Part shown: positions 1 through 59,714 of the stretch, one piece after another
Layout: each line of letters begins with the position of its first letter
Numbering within the stretch: position 1 is the stretch's first letter
Sequence record: OR896830.1
Direction: 5' to 3' (one strand)
Length of the DNA stretch: 64,000 nt
Source: Escherichia phage LinBro
Notes under the pieces: model-generated
Database searches by the model: none
Told to the model about the DNA's origin: nothing
The model's input: the letters and a program-made list of their open reading frames with translations, nothing else
Program-made: the position numbers and the translations under genes

Positions 1-1617
1 TTGCGGAGGTGCTTAATGGACTTAAATGCTGTTAAGCAGAAGCGAGTGGAAGATGTTAGGAAAGTCCTAGCTGGAGAGTTGGGGCTTTCTGATGAAGTAA
101 AAGAAATTATCAAATCATTCGGTAAAGACCCCTCTAAATTCCTTCCAACTCAAATTCTGACTTTATTAAGATACACACCAGACCAAGTTCGCCTTATCTT
201 TAAATTGATGACTGATAAGAACTATGTAGCCCCTCAACCGGGTTCTCAAGAGGTCTTTTTAAACACTAATGCTGACTTGGTTCTTTATGGTGGTGCTGCT
301 GGTGCTGGTAAAACTGCTGCATTGTTAATGGACTCTTTAAGATTTATTGAAGACCCTAACTATAATGCTGTATATTTCCGTCGAAATACAACACAGTTAC
401 AAGGTGGTTTATGGCCTGCTGCAAAGAAACTATTTGGTAAGTTTGGTGGGATTCCTCACGAGCAGAAAATGACTATCACATTCCCTTCTGGGGCGACTAT
501 CAAGTTTACCTACCTAGAACTTGAAAAGCACGCTGAAGGTCATCAGGGTATTGAATACTCAGCTATTTACTTTGACGAAGGTACACACTTCTCTGCTTCA
601 CAGATTTCATACCTACAAACCCGTCTACGTTCTGGTGCTGAAGGTGATTCATACATGAAGATTTCCATGAACCCAGACAGAGACCACTTTATTTATGATT
701 GGGTAGAACCATTCTTAGATGAAGAAGGTTATCCAGACCCTGAAAAGTGTGGTCGTATTCGTTGGTATGTAATGAATGATGGTGTGATGGTTTCTGATTG
801 GGAGAGAGACAAGATTCTTGAAATGTTCCCTCTTGAGATTCCTCAAACATACACCTTCATCTCTGGTACGATTGATGATAACCCAATTCTTGACTTCTTA
901 GAACCAAAGTATCGCGGTAAGTTGGAAAACAACACCCCTGTAAACGTTGCAAGACTTCGTTTCGGTAACTGGAAGGCTCGTGCAGAAGGTTCAAACTACT
1001 GGCAAAGACAATGGTGTGAGATTGTTGATTCACTCCCAGAAGATGTATTTGATGTTAGAGCATGGGACTTAGCAGCAACTTTACCATCTGAGATTAACCC
1101 TAACCCAGACTGGACAGCAGGTGTTAAGATGGGTAAATCTAAAAAAGACGGTTGCTATTATATCATTGATGTAGTAAGATTTAGAGATAGACCCTCTGGA
1201 GTCGAAACACAAATTAATTTGACTGCTGAAAGTGACGGTAAGCGAACTGGTATTTTTATCCCTCAAGACCCAGGCGCTGCTGGTAAATCCTACGCAACAT
1301 CCCTCATCAGGAAACTTGCCGAGAAAGGTTATCGAGCAAGAGCCAAACCAACAAATAAAGATAAAGTTACCCGCTTTGCGGGATTTTCTGCTGCTTCTGA
1401 AGCTGGACTTGTAAAAGTCTTGAGAGGTAGTTGGAACGAAGCTTATTTCCAAGAGCTTGAAGGCTTTTGTGGTGATGGCAAAACTAAAGATGACCAAGTG
1501 GATGCTACCAGTGATGCTTTCAACAGTCTTAACGAAGTTAAATTATTCAAGCCACCATCAATGGGTGCTCACACAGACTTAGTGAGAGGAAACCCATATG
1601 AGGGGCTTAGACGTTGA
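1..1617 (+). CDS. terminase large subunit (probably 5'-truncated by window edge)
   Basis: ORF open from nt 1; Walker A P-loop LVLYGGAAGAGKT near N-terminus; sits directly upstream of portal gene. Confidence 0.75.
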   Translation: MRRCLMDLNAVKQKRVEDVRKVLAGELGLSDEVKEIIKSFGKDPSKFLPTQILTLLRYTPDQVRLIFKLMTDKNYVAPQPGSQEVFLNTNADLVLYGGAAGAGKTAALLMDSLRFIEDPNYNAVYFRRNTTQLQGGLWPAAKKLFGKFGGIPHEQKMTITFPSGATIKFTYLELEKHAEGHQGIEYSAIYFDEGTHFSASQISYLQTRLRSGAEGDSYMKISMNPDRDHFIYDWVEPFLDEEGYPDPEKCGRIRWYVMNDGVMVSDWERDKILEMFPLEIPQTYTFISGTIDDNPILDFLEPKYRGKLENNTPVNVARLRFGNWKARAEGSNYWQRQWCEIVDSLPEDVFDVRAWDLAATLPSEINPNPDWTAGVKMGKSKKDGCYYIIDVVRFRDRPSGVETQINLTAESDGKRTGIFIPQDPGAAGKSYATSLIRKLAEKGYRARAKPTNKDKVTRFAGFSAASEAGLVKVLRGSWNEAYFQELEGFCGDGKTKDDQVDATSDAFNSLNEVKLFKPPSMGAHTDLVRGNPYEGLRR

Positions 1618-46534: not shown

Positions 46535-47731
46535 ATGAACAAAGTACAGATTATTAAAAAGAATGGCTCACTTGAAGAACCCGATATCAAAAAAGTTTTA
46601 GCAGCAGTAACTAAGTCAGCTAACAGGGTTGGATATAAAGAACTTCCACCAGATGTTACCCAAGCTCTTGAGTCAGCATTTATGAGGATTCTGGTAAAGT
46701 CCACTAAGCAGAATAATTTGCTCATCTCGGTAAATGATATTCACAGTATTGTTGAGGGTGCTTTGGCAGAAGTCAATCACGAGATTTATGAGTCTTACTC
46801 AACATATAGAAATTACCGTAAAGAGGTTGCTCAAAATTGGGACGAGCTTTACCAAAAGACTAGGGATACACTCTTCTTAGGTGACCGTGAAAATGCTAAC
46901 TTTGACAGTAGTTTAATTTCTACAAAAGGCTCAATTATTCGTGGTTACTTGACTAAAGAAATCTTTAAACAGTACCATTTAACACCAGAGGAACTTGAAG
47001 CCATTGAAAAAGGGTTTATCTACATCCATGACTTAAGAGACCTAATTTTTGGTGGTATCAACTGTTGCCTGTTTGACATCGGCAAAGTACTGAAAGGTGG
47101 CTTTGAAATGTCTGGTATCGAATACTGTGAACCAAAGTCTGTGCTGTCAGCCTTACAGGTTATTGGTGATGTAGTTCTTTCAGCAACTGCACAGCAATTT
47201 GGTGGCTTTACTTTAGCAGAGATTGATAAGGTACTTGTGCCGTATGCTAAAAAATCTTTAGTGTACCACTCAGAGAAAGCTGAAGAGTACGGAATCCCTA
47301 AAGAGCAACACTATAATTACGTAATGGAGCAATTACAGAATGAGTTAACACAAGGTTTCCAATCTCTTGAAATGAAACTCAACACTGTTCCTTGCAGTCG
47401 CGGTGATTTTGCATTTACTACTCTGACATTTGGCCTGTTGGAACCAGATATGCACAATGAAGATAACCGTCTTCAGTTTATGATTGCTAATACAATCCTT
47501 AATGTAAGGATGAACGGGCAAGGGAAAAGCAAAAAACCTGTTGTTTTTCCTAAACTTGTGTATATCTATGAAGAGACAAGACATAAACTTGATGTATGCC
47601 AAGCAAGGTTGTTTGAAAAAGCTATTGAGTGTTGCTCTAAAGCGATGTATCCAGATTTCTTAAGTGTATCTGGTCATGGTGCTGTAGCAGATGCTTTTGA
47701 GCGTTCTGGTAAGGTGATTTCACCGATGGGT
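46535..47731 (+). CDS. nrdD: anaerobic ribonucleotide reductase (class III), exon 1
   Basis: N-terminal ATP-cone; exon ends ...KVISPMG with final nt U at 47731, before the in-frame stop at 47732-47734 that lies in the intron. Confidence 0.75.
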
Positions 47732-48473
47732 TAACAAGCTCTATAGCTCATCTAAAACGTGCCTAAACAGGGAAACTCTACAGATGTAGACAATCCTGTG
47801 CTAAATGATGTACGATGTAAGAAACTATACAACATAGGAGTCTTACATGCCAAACTATCACGTCACTGAAGATGGAAAAGTCTTTAGGGAAAATGGTGTA
47901 GAGCTTACGCAGTGGAAATCCAACACTGGGTATATGAAAGTGAGGTTTTACGGTAAGAAGAATCGTGACATGTATGTCCACAGGTTAGTTGCTGAGAAAT
48001 ATGTACCTAACCCGAACAATCTTCCAATTGTAAAACATAAGGACGATAACAAACTAAATAACCACGTATCTAACTTAGAATGGGGTACTCATTCTGATAA
48101 TGCTAAAGAAGGTTATGAGAATGGATGTTACAAGTTCCACAAGCGTTCATATGCCGTGAAAGCCACACACAAAGTGACAAAGGAAGTTATTGTTACTAAG
48201 TCAATACGAGAGTTATCCAATATACTTGGATACAATCGCAAGACCATCTCTTCAATATTGAAGGGTGTAAAAGAGCATAATAACTTCGAATATGAGTTTG
48301 AATACATCTAAATGCCGAACGACTAACCGTGATGAATGTAGCGGTGTAGGGTCAAGCGACTCGAAATGGTACGCTACTTAGAAATAAGTAGAAGATATAG
48401 TCTGGACTTACTGGCGACAGTAAGCAGCTTGAATAAAGCGGGGTAAGCTTAGCGAACTTACCTGAACAATAAG
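47732..48473 (+). mobile_element. group I intron interrupting nrdD (carries an HNH ORF)
   Basis: Exon 1 ends in U, intron ends in G (aag at 48471-48473); P1 helix exon GATGGGT with guide GCTCATC (47746-47752); core elements GAACGACTAA (48317-48326) and AAGATATAGTC (48391-48401); join gives ISPMG|CRAFLSP. Confidence 0.75.
47847..48311 (+). CDS. intron-encoded HNH homing endonuclease
   Basis: 154 aa; VHRLVAEKY...HKDDNKLNNHVSNLEWGTHSDN typical of the HNH_3-type family. Confidence 0.7.
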   Translation: MPNYHVTEDGKVFRENGVELTQWKSNTGYMKVRFYGKKNRDMYVHRLVAEKYVPNPNNLPIVKHKDDNKLNNHVSNLEWGTHSDNAKEGYENGCYKFHKRSYAVKATHKVTKEVIVTKSIRELSNILGYNRKTISSILKGVKEHNNFEYEFEYI

Positions 48474-49421
48474 TGTAGAGCATTTTTATCACCATACCAT
48501 AACGAATATGGTGAAGAGTTTTATGTAGGTCGTGCTAACATTGGTGCTGTATCTTTGAACTTACCAATGATTTACCAGTATTCTAAAGAGAATGGTTTAG
48601 ATTTCTGGAAAGAGCTTGATAAGTACCTAGAGATGATTCGCAGCTTCCACAAGAAACGCTACGAAATGATTGCTAATATGCCAGCAAGCTCTAACCCTCT
48701 TGCATTCACACAAGGTGGCCTGTACAAAGGGACTAAGAAATCTACCGACAAGGTTGGCTGGGATATCGTGAAGTCCTTCACAGCTTCTTTTGGAGTTACT
48801 GCGCTTGATGAGCTATCTGTTCTTGCTGAAGGTAAACGACTTCATGAAGTTGGGAGCTATAGTTTTGCATACGATGTTCTGGCATACATCAACATGAAAA
48901 CTGAAGAGTTTAAAAATGAAGATGGCTTCTTATATGCTGTCTATGGTACTCCAGCAGAATCACTTTGTGGAACTCAACTAAAACAGTTCAGAGAAATGTT
49001 TGGTGTTATCAAAGGTGTTTCTGACAAGGAATACTTTACAAACAGTTTCCATATGAATGTTGCAGCAGACATCTCACCATTTGAGAAGCAGGACTTAGAA
49101 GAGCCATTCTTCCATATCTGTAGAGGTGGCAGAATCCAGTATGTCAGGGTAGCTAACCCAGAAAACTTAACAGCACTTAAGAGTTGTATTACAAGAGGGA
49201 TGTTGAAAGGTTTTTATCAGGGACTTAACTTTGACCTAGCAATTTGTGAGCATTGTGGTAGCAGACCAAAGGCTGATGTTGAAGAATGTGAGGTTTGCCA
49301 TTCACATGACATCTCTGTGATTAACAGGGTGTGCGGATATCTGGGATGGACTAAGATTAAAGGTGAATCCCGAATGAATGATGCAAAAATCGCTGAGATT
49401 CGTGACAGGATTTCTATGTAA
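48474..49421 (+). CDS. nrdD: anaerobic ribonucleotide reductase (class III), exon 2
   Basis: Begins CRAFLSP...GRANIGAVSLNLP; C-terminal CxxC zinc site and glycyl-radical motif RVCGYLG. Confidence 0.75.
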   Translation, partial: CRAFLSPYHNEYGEEFYVGRANIGAVSLNLPMIYQYSKENGLDFWKELDKYLEMIRSFHKKRYEMIANMPASSNPLAFTQGGLYKGTKKSTDKVGWDIVKSFTASFGVTALDELSVLAEGKRLHEVGSYSFAYDVLAYINMKTEEFKNEDGFLYAVYGTPAESLCGTQLKQFREMFGVIKGVSDKEYFTNSFHMNVAADISPFEKQDLEEPFFHICRGGRIQYVRVANPENLTALKSCITRGMLKGFYQGLNFDLAICEHCGSRPKADVEECEVCHSHDISVINRVCGYLGWTKIKGESRMNDAKIAEIRDRISM

Positions 49422-51235: not shown

Positions 51236-51556
51236 ATGAGCAAAGTTTATAACACTCGTAAATTACAGATTTTCGTACTGTGCCAGTTTATGGCTAAAGA
51301 GTATAACTACTACTACTGTGGTACAGGGTTCATCAGCGATGATGACGGTTCATACCTACCATTTAAAGAAGCTGTGAAGCTCTTTAATGAAGAGAAAAAC
51401 TCTAAGAAAGATATTGAAAAGGTTAAGCTAACCTACAGCAAGAAAGATAAGAAGATTATCTGCCTAGATAACTTTGTAAAAGTTACTGGAGAAGCAAAAG
51501 AGTTTATGGATGAGAGTGAGATTTCATTCACAAGCATCTTGAAAGTAGCTCAGTAA
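51236..51556 (+). CDS. hypothetical protein
   Basis: 106 aa ORF. Confidence 0.3.
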   Translation: MSKVYNTRKLQIFVLCQFMAKEYNYYYCGTGFISDDDGSYLPFKEAVKLFNEEKNSKKDIEKVKLTYSKKDKKIICLDNFVKVTGEAKEFMDESEISFTSILKVAQ

Positions 51557-51567
51557 ACAGATACTAT

Positions 51568-51598
51568 AAGGGAACTGTAAAGGTTCCCTTTTTATTTT
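51568..51598 (+). terminator. rho-independent terminator
   Basis: AAGGGAAC-tgtaaag-GTTCCCTT hairpin followed by TTTATTTT. Confidence 0.65.
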
Positions 51599-51607
51599 GG
51601 AGATAAT

Positions 51608-52123
51608 ATGTACCTGTCAAATCTGAAACGTTCTGCTGCAATGTCAGTGTTAAGACTCAGTTTTGAGGAACGTCAAGAGTTCATTGACTCCCACCAATAC
51701 GACCCTTCTAACTCCAATCACATGATTCTCTGGAATCGTGACAGTACTCGTGAAAGAGCACTATTCCGTTACTACCCACATTACACCATAGACAACTTGT
51801 ATGAATGTTTTGTTGTGAAGAACACCATTACAGTACTCAATAAACTTTGCAGATACACAGGTAGTCAATCCTTCACATTAGGCCACCACAAACCCGTTAC
51901 AAAGGGTGGTGAGCATCACTGTGCAAACTGGTTTATCCAGACTAAACTTGATAACCAGAAGCAAGGGGATAACCTCCTAAGCACACCTAAGATGACCTAT
52001 GAAGAGCAAGAGAAATATATCAAAAATAATATGCCAGATGTGCTTGACAACAACTATACAGATTTGGCAATATCTCTCCTGTTGAAGTTCGAGACAGTTT
52101 ATAGGGCAACTTACAATGGCTAA
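51608..52123 (+). CDS. HNH-like nuclease domain protein (candidate)
   Basis: GHHKPVTKGGEHHCANWFIQTKLDNQKQ resembles the HH..P...GG.....N HNH signature. Confidence 0.3.
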   Translation: MYLSNLKRSAAMSVLRLSFEERQEFIDSHQYDPSNSNHMILWNRDSTRERALFRYYPHYTIDNLYECFVVKNTITVLNKLCRYTGSQSFTLGHHKPVTKGGEHHCANWFIQTKLDNQKQGDNLLSTPKMTYEEQEKYIKNNMPDVLDNNYTDLAISLLLKFETVYRATYNG

Positions 52124-52394
52124 AGAGAAGTGGGAGATTTTACCATTAGTCAGTGAAGGCGGTAATGGTTGTGAAATGTACATGATACGTGGGCATGTTC
52201 CAGAACCAATTGCACTTGAGATGGTAAACAACTTTACAGATGGCTCTTACAAAGACTTAGGGGAGCCAAATATAAAGCAGCAATGGGTAAAGCCTGTACC
52301 AGACAGCACAGGTAACTGTAGTGTACTTTATCACGTTGTAGACCCTGCAAAATGCAAATCTGCAATGGCAGTAACAAACGTAACTTTTGATTGA
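52116..52394 (+). CDS. hypothetical protein
   Basis: 92 aa ORF. Confidence 0.3.
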   Translation: MAKEKWEILPLVSEGGNGCEMYMIRGHVPEPIALEMVNNFTDGSYKDLGEPNIKQQWVKPVPDSTGNCSVLYHVVDPAKCKSAMAVTNVTFD

Positions 52395-53287
52395 GAGAGA
52401 AAACTATGAAAACTGTTATTGAAGCCGTCGTCACCGCTCAAGAGAAATTCTTCCACACAGAAAAATTTAATATCATTCAATTCCCATCTGGAGAAATTGG
52501 TGGAAACTTCTCTGAAGATTTTGTTAAGTTTACTGAGCGTAATGCTGGTAAGATTGATAATGTTATAATTACTGTACAGGGATATGACAAAGATACACTG
52601 TTTGCATTAGCTTTGGCTAAGGATGCCGTTGACAGTCTTGTTCCCCAGAAATCAGCGATGAAAACCGTTGTTTTCGGGTTCTTACCAAATGCTCGATATG
52701 ACCGCCACATGTTCAAAGGTGATGCAGCAGCACTGAAAGCCTTTGCCAACCTAGTTAATGCAATGGGTTTTGATGCAGTATGTGCTCTTGACCCTCACAG
52801 TAATGTTGCAGAAAACTTATTTAAGTGCTTTCAAAGCATGAAGCAAAAAGATGTGGCAGTACACTTTGCAAGTGACCCACGCATTGATTTCTTGGTAGCC
52901 CCAGATGCAGGTGCAGCTAAGAAGACTGAAGATACCGCTAAAGAGGTGGATAAGCCGTATATCACAATGTCTAAGGTGCGCAATCTTAAGACTGGAGAAA
53001 TCACTGGTATGCGAATCCTTGACGATGTTGATTTGACCGATAAAACTGTCATGATTCTTGATGATATCTGTGATGGTGGTCGAACATTCGTAGAGGCAGC
53101 TAAACACCTACGTGAAGCAGGTGCAAAACGTGTGGAACTCTATGTAACTCATGGTATTTTCTCTAAAGGTGTTGAAAACTTACTTGACAACGGTATTGAC
53201 CATATCTACACTACAAACACTTTAGGCGAAGCTAAAGACCGTGGCTTAACACATTATGGTCAAGTTACTGTAGCAAACATTGATTAG
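52391..53287 (+). CDS. ribose-phosphate pyrophosphokinase (Prs)-like phosphoribosyltransferase-fold protein
   Basis: PRPP-binding loop VMILDDICDGGRTF near the C-terminal third; ~300 aa as for Prs. Confidence 0.6.
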   Translation: MREKTMKTVIEAVVTAQEKFFHTEKFNIIQFPSGEIGGNFSEDFVKFTERNAGKIDNVIITVQGYDKDTLFALALAKDAVDSLVPQKSAMKTVVFGFLPNARYDRHMFKGDAAALKAFANLVNAMGFDAVCALDPHSNVAENLFKCFQSMKQKDVAVHFASDPRIDFLVAPDAGAAKKTEDTAKEVDKPYITMSKVRNLKTGEITGMRILDDVDLTDKTVMILDDICDGGRTFVEAAKHLREAGAKRVELYVTHGIFSKGVENLLDNGIDHIYTTNTLGEAKDRGLTHYGQVTVANID

Positions 53288-53295
53288 GTAACAGT

Positions 53296-53787
53296 ATGAA
53301 TAAGGGTTATTTTGAAAGATACCTAATATATGAACCAGATACAGGTTTATTAATTTGGAGAGTAACCCTTTGCAGTACCGCTATTGCTGGTAATGTGGCT
53401 GGCACAAGGTCTAAGAAGGGTTATATCCAAGTCCAGATAAATAAGAAGAGGTACTATGCACATAATATTGCATGGATTATGTCTGGAGGTGAGATACCAA
53501 GTGGATATGAGATAGACCACATAGACCTTGATAAATCTAATAATAAGTTGGAGAATTTAAGACTTAGCACAAAGTCACAAAATCAGAGGAATAGGGGTAT
53601 ATACAAGAATAATAAAACTGGTGTGAAGGGTGTAAGTTTTTGTAAACAAACAGGTCTTTACAAAGCAAGAGTCATGCTTTACCATAAAGAATACTTTTGT
53701 GGAAGATTTAAAACGGTAGAAGAAGCAAAAGAAGCTGTAATTAAAAAGCGAATAGAACTTCATGGTGAGTTTGCAAGACATAACTAA
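53296..53787 (+). CDS. free-standing HNH homing endonuclease with AP2-like DNA-binding domain
   Basis: YEIDHIDLDKSNNKLENLRLSTKSQN HNH_3-like motif followed by GVKGVSF...GLYKARV...FKTVEEAKEA AP2-like segment. Confidence 0.65.
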   Translation: MNKGYFERYLIYEPDTGLLIWRVTLCSTAIAGNVAGTRSKKGYIQVQINKKRYYAHNIAWIMSGGEIPSGYEIDHIDLDKSNNKLENLRLSTKSQNQRNRGIYKNNKTGVKGVSFCKQTGLYKARVMLYHKEYFCGRFKTVEEAKEAVIKKRIELHGEFARHN

Positions 53788-53801
53788 GAGAGAGGTAAAA
53801 T

Positions 53802-55583
53802 ATGAGTAAGTCACTTTACGCAGTACCAGCAGGTCTTAATGCAGATGCTTACAAGGCATCACATATATATCAGTATCCAGATGCTACGCAATATCTTATG
53901 TTGAACCTGACACCACGTAGTGATAAATGGTTTAACAGCCCCTTAGCAATTGACGGTGTAGTAGCTTTTGGTATTCAACGTTTCGTTAAAGATTACTTGA
54001 TAGACCATTGGAATGCTACGTTCTTTGAACGTGACAAAAAAGAAGCAATTGACGAAATCTTAGAAGTCATGAATGGTGTTCTGGGCAAAGATGCTATCGG
54101 TCGAGAGCATTGGGAGGCACTTCACGACTTAGGTTATCTACCAGTTGAAGTATACGCTGTAGAAGAAGGCACAGTTGTCCCTATGCGTGTTCCGATGATT
54201 GTTTTCCAGAACACTGTTTCAGGTTTCCATTGGGTAGCAGGTTATCTGGAAGATGCTTTCTCTGCTGAGATTTGGAAGGCTTGTACCATTGCAACTATTG
54301 CATTGCACTACAAACGTATCTGTAAGAAGTGGGCTGACCTTACTTGTGACAACGACTTGCATTTGCCTTATCAGTGCCATGACTTTGCTATGCGTGGTAT
54401 GTCCGGCTTTACTGATGACGCATTTAACGCTGTAGGCCACTTAACCAGCTTTAAAGGAACTGATAGCTTCCCTGCTGTGTATACGGCTAAACGAATCTAT
54501 GGACAGTCCTACCCAATCTCTGATATTGGTAGCTCTGTACCAGCCACTGAGCACTCTGTAATGTGTGCAAACATTGCTTGGGAAGGTGGTAATGAGTTGA
54601 TTGAAGAAGAAAGACGCTTTAAAGGTGAGTTACAGACCTTCCGTCGTTTCTTAACAGAAACTTACCCAACTGGTATTGCAAGTATTGTTTCAGACACTTA
54701 TAACTTCTGGAGAACTGTGTCAGAAATCTTACCAGCACTTCGTAAAGAAATTATGGAACGTGATGGTAAGCTGGTAATTCGCCCTGACTCTGGAGACCCT
54801 GTACATATTGTCACAGGCTATAAAGCAATCCACTTAGAGTGTGCTAAGAAGGCTTATTATGAGCACCTAAGCAAGCTGGAAGCTAGTGACACAATGTTGA
54901 ATGCTGTTCTGAACATGAAGCTTGAAAACATCAACTATGGTATTGCTGGATGGCTACTGTCAGAAGGCTACGAAATGGTTGTTGACAGAGAAGACTTTGA
55001 AGTTGCTGATACAGTGATGTTGAAAAATGCTTATATGGTTGGCTCTGCAAACGTTGTAACACGTCCTGTAGCAGAGATTGATGGAGCTATTAAGACCCTG
55101 TACAACATCTTCGGAGGGACTATTAACTCTAAAGGGTTTAAGGTACTGGATGAGCACATCGGCCTTATCTATGGTGACTCTATCACGCTGGAACGTGCAA
55201 ACGAAATCCTGAAGCGTCTGTATGAAATGGGTTTTGCAAGCTCTAACGTAGTGTTTGGTGTAGGCTCTTACACTTACCAGTACATGACTCGCGACACCTT
55301 TGCATTTGCTGTCAAAGCAACTCTTGCAAGCATTGGTGGTAAAGAGATTATGCTTGCAAAAGACCCTAAAACAGATAGTGGTGTTAAGAAATCTGCCTTT
55401 GGTGGTGTAGCACCTATGTGGGATGGTGATAAGCTGAAAGCTGTAGATGGCTATGGATTCCAGAGTTTTGCAGATGTACTTGACCACCAAGCTTGTGCTT
55501 TACGTTTAGTCTTTAGCGACTCTGAGCAGTTCGGTTATACAACTCTTGGAGATATTCGAAATAATATTGACAAGCAGCTTTAA
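53802..55583 (+). CDS. nicotinamide phosphoribosyltransferase (NAMPT/NadV)-like protein
   Basis: N-terminal ADAYKASHIYQYPDAT resembles the NAMPT signature (DxYK..H..QYP); 593 aa. Confidence 0.65.
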   Translation: MSKSLYAVPAGLNADAYKASHIYQYPDATQYLMLNLTPRSDKWFNSPLAIDGVVAFGIQRFVKDYLIDHWNATFFERDKKEAIDEILEVMNGVLGKDAIGREHWEALHDLGYLPVEVYAVEEGTVVPMRVPMIVFQNTVSGFHWVAGYLEDAFSAEIWKACTIATIALHYKRICKKWADLTCDNDLHLPYQCHDFAMRGMSGFTDDAFNAVGHLTSFKGTDSFPAVYTAKRIYGQSYPISDIGSSVPATEHSVMCANIAWEGGNELIEEERRFKGELQTFRRFLTETYPTGIASIVSDTYNFWRTVSEILPALRKEIMERDGKLVIRPDSGDPVHIVTGYKAIHLECAKKAYYEHLSKLEASDTMLNAVLNMKLENINYGIAGWLLSEGYEMVVDREDFEVADTVMLKNAYMVGSANVVTRPVAEIDGAIKTLYNIFGGTINSKGFKVLDEHIGLIYGDSITLERANEILKRLYEMGFASSNVVFGVGSYTYQYMTRDTFAFAVKATLASIGGKEIMLAKDPKTDSGVKKSAFGGVAPMWDGDKLKAVDGYGFQSFADVLDHQACALRLVFSDSEQFGYTTLGDIRNNIDKQL

Positions 55584-55597
55584 AAGTATATGATAAG

Positions 55598-55619
55598 AGG
55601 CTCCTACGGGAGCCTTTTT
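55598..55619 (+). terminator. rho-independent terminator
   Basis: AGGCTCC-tacg-GGAGCCT hairpin followed by TTTTT. Confidence 0.65.
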
Positions 55620-55636
55620 AATTTCTGGAGAAGATT

Positions 55637-55972
55637 ATGAAAATCAAAGAAATGAACATTAACGTTGTCCTAGAAGAACGTTGGGAGAACATTAAGAAAC
55701 CTGAAGATGGTAAAAAGTTCCTTAACAAAATTTTAGTAGCAGCTAAAGAAGAACTGACTGGCAAGATTGCAGCAGCAATCACAATAAAAATCTGTGTAAA
55801 AGGTCTTCCACAACATCACCAATTTGCACTTGACGAGTTTAAAGAAAGCTTCTACAATCCAAACAAACAGATGCTTGAAAGTAACTTTGCAGTGTCTACA
55901 AGTATCGTCCATGACAGAAGCTTTATCCTTTACAAGAATATGAGAGGTGAGTCATGCAAGCATATTGGATAG
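55637..55972 (+). CDS. hypothetical protein
   Basis: 111 aa ORF. Confidence 0.3.
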   Translation: MKIKEMNINVVLEERWENIKKPEDGKKFLNKILVAAKEELTGKIAAAITIKICVKGLPQHHQFALDEFKESFYNPNKQMLESNFAVSTSIVHDRSFILYKNMRGESCKHIG

Positions 55973-56158: not shown

Positions 56159-58525
56159 ATGCGCATGGTAAATGACCACGCAGAAGTGATTAAGAGTTCA
56201 ACTTCTTTGGAGACATCTCAAGCACAGATTACAATGACACCTGAAATGTTCAGCCTTCTGAGTTCTGGTGTATACACATTCAAAGAAAGGGCAGTGATTC
56301 GTGAACTGTCATGTAATGCAGTAGATGCTCAGAAAGAAGCTGGAAAAGAGAACATCCCATTCCATGTGCATTTACCTACTCGATTTGAGCCTTACTTTGA
56401 AGTCCGTGACTTTGGAACTGGTTTAACCCATGACAAAGTAATGAGTTTGTACCTGAACTATGGGGCTTCTACGAAGAATGACTCTAATGATTACATTGGT
56501 GCAATGGGTATCGGCTCAAAATCACCATTTGCAATTGCTCAGTCATTCACAGTGTCTAGCTATGTTGATGGTGTTGTTAATAAGTACTCTGTTTACCTTG
56601 AGAATGGTATACCTCAAGTAACTAAGCTTACTACTAACCCAACAAATGAACCCAATGGTTTAGCTGTACGTGTGGCAGTTGCTGACCACCGTATTTCAAA
56701 GTTCTTTGAAGAGGCTGGTCATGTATACTCATACTTTGCTGTAAAACCAGAAAGTAACATTGTATATGATGATGTGTTAGCAGATATGAACGTCATTGCT
56801 CGTGAAGAAGGTGTTTATGATGCCATGATTCATAAGCAAAGCTGGCGTTCTAGTGGTAACAGGACGGAGTTTAATGTGGTGATGGGTAATATTGCCTATC
56901 CAGTGAACATGGAAGCATTACTTGGTGATGATTTCTTCAAAGTCTTGCCAGAGTTTTTCCGTAGGAGCGTAGACCTTGTAAACATTTACATGCCTATTGG
57001 TTCAGTCGCTATTGCAGCTTCTCGTGAAGCATTGCAGATGAATGATACGACAAAAAATGTTATCATTGAGGCTACTAAAAAGATAACTGAAGCAATTACA
57101 AAGGATGTTATCAAGAAAGTTAATAGCCAACCTACACTCATGGATGCTGCACAGGCTTATGCTGAGTTACGTTTGAACTCACGAGAGATGTTTAATGCTG
57201 TGTGTCCAAAGTTAGAGTGGGGAGGCGTTAAGCTTGATTCTTTGGAAGAAGAATTACTAAACATTCGTCGTGGGATTATCTACGCAGAAGACGGCTCAGT
57301 CATTTATGAACGTGACGGCAAAGGTAATATTAAGGTTGACAGTAAAGGAAACAACATTCCTAAAGTGGACTACCTATACAATCCAGTTGCTTATGTTAAG
57401 TTCAACTCTTTAGAGAGTAAGATTCGTGCAACAGCACTTTCCTACACTCAAGAGGCGAGCATGTTCAATATCTTTGGTGCAATGCGTAAAAGCCAAATTG
57501 AACAGTTTTTGTTCGTGATTAATGACCGTCGCAATAAAAACGGTACTGAAAAGACTGTAGGCCGCAATCAGATTCTGCGTGGTGCATGTCGAGACTACGC
57601 CAGTGAGTCAAGTCTGTTTCACAGATATAATGGTATTGTGTTTGTATTCTCGACTGAAAAAGAGTTAGACGACCTAATCAATCTACACAAACTTGATAAA
57701 AGCTTGTTAAAGATTGTGAAAATGTCTGATAAGGAGCACCATTACCAGCGCAAAGAAGCTGTAAGGGGTGTTGTAAAACTCTGGAAAGCTGTTCCAGCAG
57801 AAGGTGTAGCTTCCTATAAAGAGGTTTCAGAGGACTTTGATACAATTGAAGAACCTCAGCTTTACATTAAGGCAGTTGGTGACACAGTTGATGGCGAATG
57901 TTTTTGCTCATCTCCAGAAGATGTAGCTAAGTCAGTCGCTAATGTTCTAGGGAAGACAGTCTATGTTTTCCGAAAAGCAAATTGGAAAAAGATACCAGAA
58001 GACTGGATTGAAGTAGATGAGAAGCTCTTGAACGACAGCTTAACTGATGTTCACTGGATTAATCATAACAGGTATATGACACGTATCTATATGAATGGTG
58101 TTCTTGACCTTACAAGCAGTTGGATTATCACCAGAAACTTTACATTCAATAACAGGAAGATTTCTCGTGGTTATTGCTATTCACGAGATACTAACAAAAC
58201 TATCTTCCTAGAAGGCAATGAAGATGCTGTAGAGGCAATGTTCGGTAAAATCCAATACGTTGCTGCACCATTTGCATACACTTATACTGTTAGTGTATTG
58301 AAAACTTTGAAAGACTGTCTTGACAATGATACAAAGCTTTACAAGAAAATTAAGAAAGCTGGTGACCGCATGGTCATTAAGGTGACAAACTACCTTTCAA
58401 AAAGAAAACAAGAAAACTTCTTGCTTTCTCATTTAGATTGGAATAAAGTGTCGCCTATCGAAGTGAGTAAGTTCTTAGGCTTTGATGTGAAGTGTGTTCC
58501 AGAAGGGACTACAATTTACGATTAA
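56159..58525 (+). CDS. rIIA: rIIA-like protein with N-terminal GHKL (Bergerat-fold) ATPase domain
   Basis: ATPase motifs IRELSCNAVDA (N box), VRDFGTGL (G1), GAMGIGSKS (G2); 788 aa followed by rIIB-sized ORF. Confidence 0.6.
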   Translation: MRMVNDHAEVIKSSTSLETSQAQITMTPEMFSLLSSGVYTFKERAVIRELSCNAVDAQKEAGKENIPFHVHLPTRFEPYFEVRDFGTGLTHDKVMSLYLNYGASTKNDSNDYIGAMGIGSKSPFAIAQSFTVSSYVDGVVNKYSVYLENGIPQVTKLTTNPTNEPNGLAVRVAVADHRISKFFEEAGHVYSYFAVKPESNIVYDDVLADMNVIAREEGVYDAMIHKQSWRSSGNRTEFNVVMGNIAYPVNMEALLGDDFFKVLPEFFRRSVDLVNIYMPIGSVAIAASREALQMNDTTKNVIIEATKKITEAITKDVIKKVNSQPTLMDAAQAYAELRLNSREMFNAVCPKLEWGGVKLDSLEEELLNIRRGIIYAEDGSVIYERDGKGNIKVDSKGNNIPKVDYLYNPVAYVKFNSLESKIRATALSYTQEASMFNIFGAMRKSQIEQFLFVINDRRNKNGTEKTVGRNQILRGACRDYASESSLFHRYNGIVFVFSTEKELDDLINLHKLDKSLLKIVKMSDKEHHYQRKEAVRGVVKLWKAVPAEGVASYKEVSEDFDTIEEPQLYIKAVGDTVDGECFCSSPEDVAKSVANVLGKTVYVFRKANWKKIPEDWIEVDEKLLNDSLTDVHWINHNRYMTRIYMNGVLDLTSSWIITRNFTFNNRKISRGYCYSRDTNKTIFLEGNEDAVEAMFGKIQYVAAPFAYTYTVSVLKTLKDCLDNDTKLYKKIKKAGDRMVIKVTNYLSKRKQENFLLSHLDWNKVSPIEVSKFLGFDVKCVPEGTTIYD

Positions 58526-58604: not shown

Positions 58605-59714
58605 ATGACTACTAAAACTAAAGCACAGATTGACGCAGAAATTTACAAACTGGTTAAAGAAGGTAAGCTGACTAAAACAGCTATTGCACAGAAATTTAAT
58701 ACTTCAACCCGTTCAGTTGGTCGTGCTGTAGAGCGTCATGAAGCAACTTTAAAAGGGGATAAGAAGGCAACTTCTACACCAGCTACGAAGACTTTGAAGC
58801 AAGTTGCTAAGACATTTAAAAAGAAAGCTGACAAACCAGTTGAAAAGGTCGTTAAAGATGCTGTACAGAAAGCTCCGGTAAATAAACTGCATGAAGCTAT
58901 GCAGAAAGATGACAAGATTGAGTACATGATTACTGGTGACTCTGTAATTATGACTTATGGTTCAGAATCTGAAATTGTTGAGTCTACTCATCCGAACTAT
59001 CAAGAGATTGTAGTTCATGTTGTGAAAGGTGAGTTCAAAAAAGCCTTTGAATTGATGAACATTCGTAAGTCTATCGAAAACTTCACTCAGGGCGCTATCA
59101 CAATCAAAGGTGACAAGTTATTCTACGGTGCTGTTGAGATGCGTTCTACTCTGGTTGACCGTATTCTTCACATGATGAAGACTGGAGATAAAGGTTTCGA
59201 ACGCCTTGTGATGTTCTTCGAAAAACTGATGGAAAACCCATCTAAAGACTCTGTAGAACAACTTTGGGGCTTCGTATCTCACCTTGATGTTGAAATTGAT
59301 GAAGAAGGCTACATCATTGGTTGGAAGAAAGTATCTACTCGTGAAGGCAAGCTGGTTGACTCCCACACCTACAGAGTACCTAATGATTTGGGTAACATTG
59401 TAGAAATGCCACGTTGGATGGTTGATAATAACCGTAACGTGACTTGCTCTCAAGGTCTTCATGTTGGTGCTTGGGATTATGTTCGTTGCTTCTCAGGTGA
59501 TACAATTCTGAAGGTTCGTGTCCATCCACGAGACGTTGTATCCGTACCAACTGATTACAACGATATGAAGATGCGCTCGTCTCGTTATGAAGTTGCAGCA
59601 ATCGTTGATAATCAACGTAAAGTACTGAAAGCATGGGATGGCAAGACTGAAGCTTTGCATGTCATCGTTGGCACTGCTGGGGAACTTATCTCTCAGCGTA
59701 AACGTGAAATCTAA
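58605..59714 (+). CDS. rIIB: rIIB-like protein
   Basis: 369 aa ORF immediately downstream of the rIIA-like gene (conserved pairing); no independent motif. Confidence 0.45.
   Translation: MTTKTKAQIDAEIYKLVKEGKLTKTAIAQKFNTSTRSVGRAVERHEATLKGDKKATSTPATKTLKQVAKTFKKKADKPVEKVVKDAVQKAPVNKLHEAMQKDDKIEYMITGDSVIMTYGSESEIVESTHPNYQEIVVHVVKGEFKKAFELMNIRKSIENFTQGAITIKGDKLFYGAVEMRSTLVDRILHMMKTGDKGFERLVMFFEKLMENPSKDSVEQLWGFVSHLDVEIDEEGYIIGWKKVSTREGKLVDSHTYRVPNDLGNIVEMPRWMVDNNRNVTCSQGLHVGAWDYVRCFSGDTILKVRVHPRDVVSVPTDYNDMKMRSSRYEVAAIVDNQRKVLKAWDGKTEALHVIVGTAGELISQRKREI

Follow-up and report, generated by a model that had tools for sequence, protein, structure and literature searches.

The window analyzed here, a 64,000-nt stretch of the Escherichia phage LinBro sequence record OR896830.1, belongs to the genus Felixounavirus and carries adps, an HNH gene and namat as three plus-strand ORFs in a neighborhood collinear with that of phage Bas63 (Table 1). 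An earlier note, made from the letters alone, had placed a Prs-like and a 593-aa NAMPT-like protein in one unit at this site with an endonuclease gene between them, and both the ORF map and the profile matches agree: namat starts 515 nt downstream of adps, with only the HNH gene in the interval, and both ORFs are intact and preceded by Shine-Dalgarno-like sequences. The mechanical ORF of adps begins at a TTG at 52391, overlapping the stop codon of the upstream gene; the ATG at 52406 is most likely the true start, given the Shine-Dalgarno-like stretch GAGAGAGAAA just upstream of it and its agreement with the Bas63 annotation. A terminator-like hairpin likely marks the end of the transcription unit, and a similar hairpin forms part of a promoter-like module upstream. 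A minus-strand ORF within namat (54960-55490) was dismissed as spurious, since the conserved namat frame accounts for the whole region.

Table 1. Features of the adps-namat locus of LinBro, in window coordinates
Feature	Coordinates	Strand	Basis or remark
Promoter-like/hairpin/SD module	51539-51606		Upstream of unit; similar to the 55595-55618 hairpin
adps, putative ADPR-pyrophosphate synthetase (Prs-like), 293 aa	52406..53287	+	Near-identity to Bas63_0079; PHROG 619
Adps SKVR segment	52970..52981	+	HMMER alignment to human PRPS1 and Sulfolobus Prs
Adps PRTase-type ribose-phosphate binding loop ILDDICDGGRTF, aa 217-228	53054..53089	+	Alignment
HNH gene, 163 aa	53296..53787	+	PF13392 HNH_3; PHROG 99
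namat, putative nicotinamide ADPR-transferase (NAMPT-like), 593 aa	53802..55583	+	Near-identity to Bas63_0080; Namat structures
HNH-linked polymorphic tract, namat 5' end	53802..53905	+	Allele comparison
Namat selectivity-clamp loop (SCL), PRSDKWFNSP	53913..53942	+	Alignment; same sequence in Bas63
Namat H251, within conserved ATEHS segment	54552..54554	+	Alignment to SpbetaL1 Namat
Namat insertion 1, aa 257-275 (19 aa), NIAWEGGNELIEEERRFKG	54570..54626	+	Absent in short-form Namat/Nampt
Namat insertion 2, aa 342-423 (~72-82 aa)	54825..55070	+	Compact alpha/beta module
Namat selectivity-clamp helix signature GSYTYQYMTRD, aa 488-498	55263..55295	+	Motif search, found once
Terminator-like hairpin and T-run	55595..55618	+	12 nt past namat stop codon

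The Prs-like protein

The LinBro Adps is identical to Bas63 gp79 (Bas63_0079) at 290 of 293 positions (99%). It matches the profile of PHROG 619, 'ribose-phosphate pyrophosphokinase' (E 9e-99), and passes TIGR01251 (138 bits, cut-off 113), yet it stays below all Prs equivalog and subfamily models, scoring about 47-115 bits against cut-offs of 296-536, with the best equivalog score coming from NF002095 (114.6 bits against 296). K190, in the SKVR segment, falls at the position of the Prs catalytic lysine in the alignment (K194 of the human enzyme), where Prs proteins read KERK or KRR; the equivalents are reported to be K197 in Bacillus subtilis and K162 in the SpbetaL1 Adps (Osterman et al., bioRxiv 10.1101/2024.02.11.579819). 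The Prs-like phosphoribosyltransferase loop recognized in the earlier note is present as well. By proxy, the protein would belong to the phage Adps clade rather than to the cellular Prs enzymes, since it is 99% identical to Bas63 Adps, one of the seeds of that clade, and fails the Prs equivalog models; 97% of that clade has a Namat homologue in the immediate vicinity. Our literature search found no Adps structure and no residues setting specificity for ADPR over ribose-5-phosphate, so clade membership is drawn from the Bas63 identity rather than from a residue-level signature.

The NAMPT-like protein

Namat shares 581 of 593 residues (98%) with Bas63 gp80 (Bas63_0080), and none of the 12 substitutions falls at a core or clamp residue. 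Its profile match is to PHROG 448, 'nicotinamide phosphoribosyl transferase' (E 4e-202); it carries the Pfam domains PF04095 and PF18127, passes NF006629 (472 bits, cut-off 405), and contains the NAMPT-like signature picked out previously, ADAYKASHIYQYPDAT, at aa 14-29. Its best matches among PDB sequences are the SpbetaL1 Namat entries 9W5W/9W5X (E 4e-129), which also head the Foldseek results for the AF2 model (pLDDT 93.3), with an E value of 1.5e-53 and a TM-score of 0.95 on the target; both sequence and structure thus rank these entries ahead of genuine Nampts. The profile matches of the two enzymes, and that of the HNH protein, lie well beyond what chance would give.

Residues D15, Y17, F195, R198, D221, H251, R327, D329 and G458-D459 make up a complete catalytic core, corresponding in SpbetaL1 Namat to D13, Y15, F189, R192, D215, the catalytic His, R306, D308 and G360-D361. 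H251 is invariant in a 42-sequence alignment and is taken to be the catalytic (phosphorylated) histidine of the family. In the SDKW stretch of the clamp loop, K42 aligns with SpbetaL1 R40 and is followed directly by W43; under the published clamp-loop rule, for which Bas63 is the paper's example, the stacking residue is either an Arg at position 3 or the residue that follows a Lys or Tyr, and W43 is the proposed adenine-stacking residue, as in Bas63. The clamp helix signature corresponds to the published Namat-specific adenine-clamp consensus, GS-X-phi-X-phi-X-phi-TRD, in which X is aromatic.

The NAMPT-like ORF had been described as about 100 aa longer than is typical, perhaps because of an extra domain; it indeed contains two lineage-specific insertions that are missing from SpbetaL1 Namat and from short-form relatives, and the larger, insertion 2, is confidently folded in the predicted structure. 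It sits after the RPDSG strand, where an example short form has the loop GTGDDRDTEPTRS, and is specific to the long-form Namats of the Ounavirinae (Felixounavirus, phiSUSP1, Silverhawkium) and of some other enterobacterial phages of ~85-92 kb; in other lineages this loop holds insertions unrelated to it. We found no structural or sequence relative of insertion 2 outside long-form Namats. An exhaustive HMMER search of 1.84 billion representatives with a trimmed insertion profile returned five matches, two of them Namat or a Namat fragment, and the other three, giant SEA-domain or Listeria-Bacteroides repeat proteins, were rejected because their scores were summed from many weak repeats. With the 83-aa insertion as query, a word-indexed protein search gave one 54-aa candidate and was uninformative, as it missed even known full-length homologues. 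An intein or intron origin was likewise rejected, as the insertion is in frame, is too short for an intein and lacks the terminal Cys/Ser and His-Asn of splice junctions, and as its amino-acid sequence is conserved across diverged relatives and it folds within the enzyme. That insertion 2 is a functional add-on rather than neutral decoration, for instance an Adps dock channelling labile ADPR-PP, an allosteric or oligomerization element, or a barrier to a host Namat inhibitor, strikes us as rather doubtful; were it such an add-on, this Namat loop, with its unrelated insertions in other lineages, would be a hot spot for accessory functions.

The intervening HNH gene

The gene between adps and namat encodes a predicted free-standing HNH homing endonuclease with an HNH_3 domain (PF13392, E 2e-19) and an AP2-like DNA-binding domain (weak match), belonging to PHROG 99 (E 3e-68); a search of PDB sequences with this protein gave no match. 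The gene is a selfish mobile insertion in the intergenic spacer and stands outside NARP1 chemistry. Among evenly sampled relatives about one in four has it; it is absent from Bas63 and most others, which have a 45-nt spacer with a hairpin instead. When six alleles with the HNH gene were compared with six without it, 18 sites within 53800-53899 differed in allele frequency by at least 0.66, against 0-1 such sites in every other comparable 100-nt bin. This tract at the 5' end of namat is probably a homing-endonuclease co-conversion or cleavage-immunity tract.

Assignment to NARP1

NAD+ reconstitution pathway 1 (NARP1) was discovered in Bas63 as the gp79-gp80 pair of Adps and Namat (Osterman et al., bioRxiv 10.1101/2024.02.11.579819). 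In the same study, Bas63 lacking genes 79-80 became sensitive to SIR2-HerA, NAD+ recovered only when the operon was present, ADPR-PP (m/z 720.010) appeared only in wild-type Bas63 infection of defense-positive cells, and the effect held in a host without pncC and nadR. In vitro, the SpbetaL1 Adps yielded product only with ADPR and ATP, with none in the minus-ADPR control, and the SpbetaL1 Namat preferred ADPR-PP over PRPP, a preference that the in vivo results imply for Bas63 as well (bioRxiv 10.1101/2024.02.11.579819). The in vitro work used the SpbetaL1 homologues, at roughly 38% identity, as Bas63 Adps failed to purify. Independent PhageMaP knock-outs lowered plating efficiency by 1e4-1e6, and complementation rescued it.

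We consider it very probable that the LinBro locus is the NARP1 operon of a Felixounavirus. The evidence presented here consists of identity to a characterized pair, catalytic and clamp residues, predicted fold and gene arrangement; the enzymatic activities and anti-defense phenotype of the LinBro pair we infer from the Bas63 and SpbetaL1 literature. The earlier note had proposed an NAD+ reconstitution module, with the ADPR-PP route as one option, and the 99% and 98% identities to Bas63 gp79 and gp80 bear this out. It had also held that the route could not be decided from sequence alone, which proves too cautious: the near-identity to the characterized pair and the Namat-specific clamp motif decide by homology, pointing to the ADPR-PP route and not to PRPP/NMN.

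On this assignment, once a host defense, for example SIR2-HerA, type I Thoeris, DSR1/2 or SEFIR, has cleaved NAD+ to ADP-ribose and nicotinamide, Adps would use ATP to pyrophosphorylate ADP-ribose to ADPR-PP. Namat would then exchange the pyrophosphate for nicotinamide, yielding NAD+ directly, and the restored NAD+ pool would allow the phage to escape abortive infection. Namat retains some PRPP-to-NMN activity in vitro, and it may make a minor canonical contribution by this path.

Alternative readings

The same genes could be a canonical salvage booster, in which a true PRPP synthetase and a true Nampt/NadV make NMN and host NadR or PncC completes NAD+. The labels in GenBank, Pfam and NCBIfam (ribose-phosphate pyrophosphokinase; nicotinamide/nicotinate phosphoribosyltransferase) favor it, as do the pass against NF006629 and the NMN that Namat makes from PRPP in vitro. 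We nevertheless regard it as very improbable for LinBro, where the Prs-like protein lies far under the Prs equivalog cut-offs and the NAMPT-like protein has the Namat-specific clamp motif. No NMN adenylyltransferase domain occurs in the neighboring ORFs and none is annotated in the collinear Bas63 genome, which also tells against NARP2 (Nampt plus Nmnat). For Bas63, canonical salvage is largely refuted: the wild-type phage beats SIR2-HerA without host pncC and nadR, and ADPR-PP is formed; the SpbetaL1 homologue yields product only with ADPR and ATP.

A NARP1 module could also be impaired in LinBro, through uncoupled expression of the two genes by the HNH insertion, which replaces the native 45-nt spacer, or through decay of the operon, as suggested by phage ekra, the closest relative, where an (AT)n run longer by 2 nt frameshifts namat in the sequence record. 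This seems to us even less probable than canonical salvage. In LinBro the (AT)n run keeps the reading frame, the two genes are full length and every mapped functional residue is present; in each of the six HNH-containing alleles examined, the namat ATG follows a GAGAGAG Shine-Dalgarno-like stretch; and FelixO1, BPS15Q2, dune and Mushroom have the same arrangement with intact genes. Since FelixO1 and roughly one in four sampled relatives have this arrangement, adps and namat would be expected to be co-expressed despite the insertion.

Implications

The NARP1 module is a genuine anti-defense system, and its assignment predicts that LinBro, like Bas63, grows on hosts carrying SIR2-HerA/Nezha, type I Thoeris, DSR1/2 or SEFIR. 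A Pfam search of the flanking ORFs at 51608-52123, 52116-52394 and 55637-55972 found no Macro or RyR domain; on that basis the module is not expected to overcome aRES-type cleavage to ADPR-1''-P, and LinBro is predicted to be unable to grow on hosts with that activity. Predicting NARP1 in this way can help host-range forecasts and the choice of phages for therapy. It is easily mis-annotated, as Pfam, NCBIfam, PHROGs and GenBank records still call its genes Prs and NAMPT/NAPRT. The LinBro pair adds no new pathway, NARP1 having already been described, and the locus leaves the current understanding of it unchanged.

Comparison with known systems

Among related pathways, NARP2 has a PRPP-preferring Nampt, whereas the LinBro protein has the Namat motif instead. 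NARP1-AP (Adps-Adpp-Namat) and RyDEP-carrying NARP1 loci share the Adps/Namat core with LinBro and, like it, can have a third gene inside the operon, which in LinBro is the HNH endonuclease; the Adpp of NARP1-AP is a Macro-domain ADPR-1''-phosphatase, found within two genes of NARP1.

Class I PRPP synthetases (Prs, EC 2.7.6.1) have the two-domain architecture of Adps and share its ARYDRH, DPHS and APDAGAAKK motifs, catalytic lysine and PRTase loop. The ribose-5-phosphate loop is altered, reading DDICDGGRT in Adps and DDMADTCGT or DDIISTGGT in Prs, and solved Prs structures match Adps at 1e-18 to 1e-12 only. The canonical Nampt/NadV enzymes compared (human NAMPT, Haemophilus ducreyi NadV 9KE8/9KEO and the Vibrio phage KVP40 NadV of NARP2) have the type II phosphoribosyltransferase fold, nicotinamide pocket and catalytic histidine in common with Namat. 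Published work describes these enzymes as having no aromatic clamp motif, favoring PRPP and depending on an NMN adenylyltransferase partner. Human NAMPT is a weaker match to the LinBro protein, at E 1e-41 by sequence where Namat reaches 1e-129, and at 1e-38 by structure where Namat reaches 1e-53.

Closer still is SpbetaL1 Namat (PDB 9W5W/9W5X; Lan et al., NAR 2026, PMC12774641), with the same fold, catalytic core and clamp helix at ~38% identity. It is ~490 aa long without either insertion, uses R40 in the clamp loop where LinBro has K42 then W43, and has S190 and A362 in place of LinBro A196 and S460. The nearest counterpart is the NARP1 of Bas63 (JohannRWettstein), a phage of the same genus whose genes 79-80 occupy the same place, between a gp78 homologue and rIIA, and whose Namat, also 593 aa long, shares the two insertions, the clamp loop and the clamp motif. 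The two loci differ in the 492-nt HNH gene that LinBro carries in the adps-namat spacer and Bas63 does not, in the linked variant 5' end of namat, where 7 of the 12 amino-acid differences lie in aa 2-34, and in the extra downstream gene 81 of Bas63, which is missing in LinBro.

Gene organization and family assignment

The region holds three co-directional open reading frames (ORFs), whose products can be placed in their superfamilies unambiguously from profile searches. The Prs-like protein matches PF00156, PF14572 and PHROG 619 and scores 138 bits against TIGR01251 (cut-off 113); the HNH gene product matches PF13392 (HNH_3), PHROG 99 and, weakly, an AP2-like domain; and the NAMPT-like protein matches PF04095, PF18127 and PHROG 448, scoring 472 bits against NF006629 (cut-off 405). 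Both peptide strings quoted in the earlier note are present in these proteins. The first protein falls well short of all curated equivalog cut-offs for Prs (114.6 against 296 in one case) and is therefore Prs-like rather than a standard Prs. For its gene, the ATG at 52406 is the most likely start, favored by GAGAGAGAAA upstream of the codon and by agreement with orthologue annotation; the TTG (52391) overlaps the preceding gene's stop codon.

Features of the region (genes and hairpins in window nucleotides, insertions in Namat residues)
Feature	Coordinates	Strand	Size	Remarks
Terminator-like hairpin	51568-51590			Consensus match; downstream of promoter-like site, upstream of Shine-Dalgarno and ATG
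adps (Prs-like)	Mechanical ORF 52391-53287; likely start 52406	+	293 aa from ATG	
HNH gene	53296-53787	+	163 aa	
namat (NAMPT-like)	53802-55583	+	593 aa	
Terminator-like hairpin	55595-55618			Consensus match; downstream of promoter-like site, upstream of Shine-Dalgarno and ATG
Namat insertion 1	aa 257-275		19 aa	Relative to SpbetaL1 Namat and short-form relatives
Namat insertion 2	aa ~342-423		Net ~72 aa	After conserved RPDSG strand; relative to SpbetaL1 Namat and short-form relatives

Identification of the pair as NARP1

The proposal that these genes form an NAD+ reconstitution module is supported by their near identity to an experimentally demonstrated NARP1 (NAD+ reconstitution pathway 1), the gene 79-80 pair of Bas63 (JohannRWettstein), the Felixounavirus in which NARP1 was first found (MZ501086; bioRxiv 10.1101/2024.02.11.579819). 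The ADPR-pyrophosphate (ADPR-PP) synthetase, Adps, is identical to Bas63_0079 at 290 of 293 residues and the nicotinamide ADPR-transferase, Namat, to Bas63_0080 at 581 of 593, both Namats being the same length, and on this comparison we identify the pair as a NARP1 operon.

Whether such a pair follows the canonical PRPP/NMN route or an ADPR-PP route had been left undecided from sequence. Adps retains the Prs catalytic framework, including ARYDRH, DPHS and APDAGAAKK, with K190 aligned to the catalytic lysine of Prs, and its ribose-phosphate loop is modified (DDICDGGRT). Deletion of Bas63 genes 79-80 caused sensitivity to SIR2-HerA and loss of NAD+ restoration, ADPR-PP was seen only with wild-type Bas63 in defence-positive cells, and the effect was kept in a host without pncC and nadR (bioRxiv 10.1101/2024.02.11.579819), which excludes the NMN route for Bas63. 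Purified Adps of SpbetaL1 gave product only from ADPR plus ATP, and its Namat couples nicotinamide to ADPR-PP, which it prefers over PRPP (bioRxiv 10.1101/2024.02.11.579819). In PhageMaP, an independent knock-out screen, loss of g79 or g80 lowered plating on Sir2-HerA cells 1e4-1e6-fold and complementation rescued it, with weaker effects also on retron Ec86 and hhe. The Bas63 experiments on near-identical genes thus contradict the PRPP/NMN route, and we consider the question resolved in favor of ADPR-PP.

Residues and insertions of Namat

Crystal structures define a Namat-specific adenine "selectivity clamp" made of a helix signature, GS-X-phi-X-phi-X-phi-TRD with X aromatic, and a loop giving a stacking residue, either Arg or, as in Bas63, Lys/Tyr followed by the stacking residue (PMC12774641). 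The window protein has GSYTYQYMTRD at residues 488-498, which fits the signature, K42-W43 in the loop, and all mapped core residues (D15, Y17, F195, R198, D221, H251, R327, D329, G458-D459). None of its 12 differences from Bas63 (S2T, A19S, S20G, I22V, D27S, Q30E, L34F, N367D, N378S, I441T, A537S, Q563P) falls on clamp or mapped core residues. A confident AlphaFold2 model (mean pLDDT 93.3, pTM 0.91) has as its top solved-structure matches 9W5X/9W5W (E 1.5e-53, TM 0.95 on target), confirmed as Namat by the data-availability statement (PMC12774641), followed by Haemophilus ducreyi NadV and mammalian NAMPT; sequence search gives the same ranking (4e-129, 1e-105 and 1e-41).

The extra length noticed earlier is borne out as two insertions. 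Both are also found in Bas63 and in ~590-610-aa homologues from Ounavirinae and from certain other enterobacterial phages of ~85-92 kb, among them phiSUSP1, Silverhawkium, Yersinia phage P778 and Pectobacterium phage Arno162. The prediction of insertion 2 is highly confident within the full protein and also in isolation (pLDDT 88; core about 94), with a modeled beta-alpha3-beta2-alpha-beta topology. The word "insertion" appears nowhere in the Namat structural paper (PMC12774641). Unrelated insertions of 30-75 aa occupy exactly the same post-RPDSG loop (window residues 334-432) in other Namat/Nampt-like lineages (P0083, P0095, P0101, P0107), P0095 and P0101 having, for example, a TPHG...YNRYDKQYY module there, and this loop appears to be an insertion hot spot.

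The HNH gene and its flank

The HNH gene, absent from Bas63, occurs at this site in about a quarter of 60 evenly sampled relatives, the remainder having instead a 45-nt spacer with the hairpin GGGGCTTGAAAGCCCC. When six alleles with the gene (HNH+) and six without (HNH-) were compared in 100-nt bins, ignoring the bin over the HNH gene 3' end, which is without an HNH- counterpart, sites strongly associated with the gene lay only within the opening ~100 nt of namat (53802-53905), where there were 18, against 0-1 per 100 nt in other comparable bins. HNH-linked sites explain seven of the 12 Namat differences from Bas63, and some HNH- phages (tootiki, L27) also carry the HNH+-type flank. This pattern looks like the footprint expected of a free-standing homing endonuclease, by co-conversion or target-site immunity; no paralogue of the gene was found in the window. 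In the closest relative, Escherichia phage ekra (MN850644, about 2975-2990), the (AT)n run spanning namat codons ~22-24 is longer by 2 nt, which frameshifts namat in the record, whose annotated gene begins at a downstream ATG; the window equivalent (53861-53871) is in frame. Either a genuine tendency of this run to slip or a sequencing error could account for the expansion.

Transcription context and neighboring genes

By consensus matches, the two hairpins bracket a unit of the gp77 and gp78 homologues, adps, HNH and namat. The intergenic modules at 51539-51606 and 55567-55636 are alike (TTGA(C)AAG..AGCT promoter-like site, GC-rich hairpin, T-run, GGAGA, ATG) and may be a recurring promoter/terminator unit in this phage group.

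The neighborhood is collinear with Bas63, most genes having 96-99% protein identity, compared with 82% for rIIB. Bas63 carries a 345-nt gene, bas63_0081, that separates namat from the gp82 homologue (L002, 5455-5857); this gene is missing in the window (~55620-55640), another small indel of the accessory region. The 171-aa ORF at 51608-52123 is identical at 169 residues to Bas63 gp77, which PhageMaP reported to counter retron Ec67 and described as GIY-YIG; the window ORF has only a weak PHROG HNH-endonuclease match (E 2e-4) and an HNH-like HHKP...GGEHH...N stretch, so that its nuclease class seems unsettled. Homologues of rIIA and rIIB, reported in Bas63 (g84, g85) to counter QatABCD, lie at 56159-58525 and 58605-59714, and together gp77, NARP1 and rIIA/rIIB make a run of anti-defence genes. 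The ORFs at 46535-47734, 47847-48311 and 48555-49421 are laid out as in Bas63, whose NrdD annotation joins two pieces around an internal homing endonuclease gene, and are probably an intron- or homing endonuclease-split anaerobic ribonucleotide reductase gene.

Relation to known NARP1 systems

The segment is matched in 257 phage records, nearly all Felixounavirus, with ekra on top (97% nucleotide identity); in these records adps appears as "ribose-phosphate pyrophosphokinase" and namat as "nicotinamide phosphoribosyltransferase." NARP1 itself has been reported from 859 phage genomes, 4.3% of those analyzed. A Pfam search of the window neighbors detected neither a Macro-domain phosphatase (NARP1-AP) nor a RyR-domain glycosidase (RyDEP), and the system is therefore a plain two-enzyme NARP1, which should not rescue the phage from aRES-type NAD+ cleavage to ADPR-1''-phosphate. 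The system is thus already known, and is essentially the type example of NARP1.
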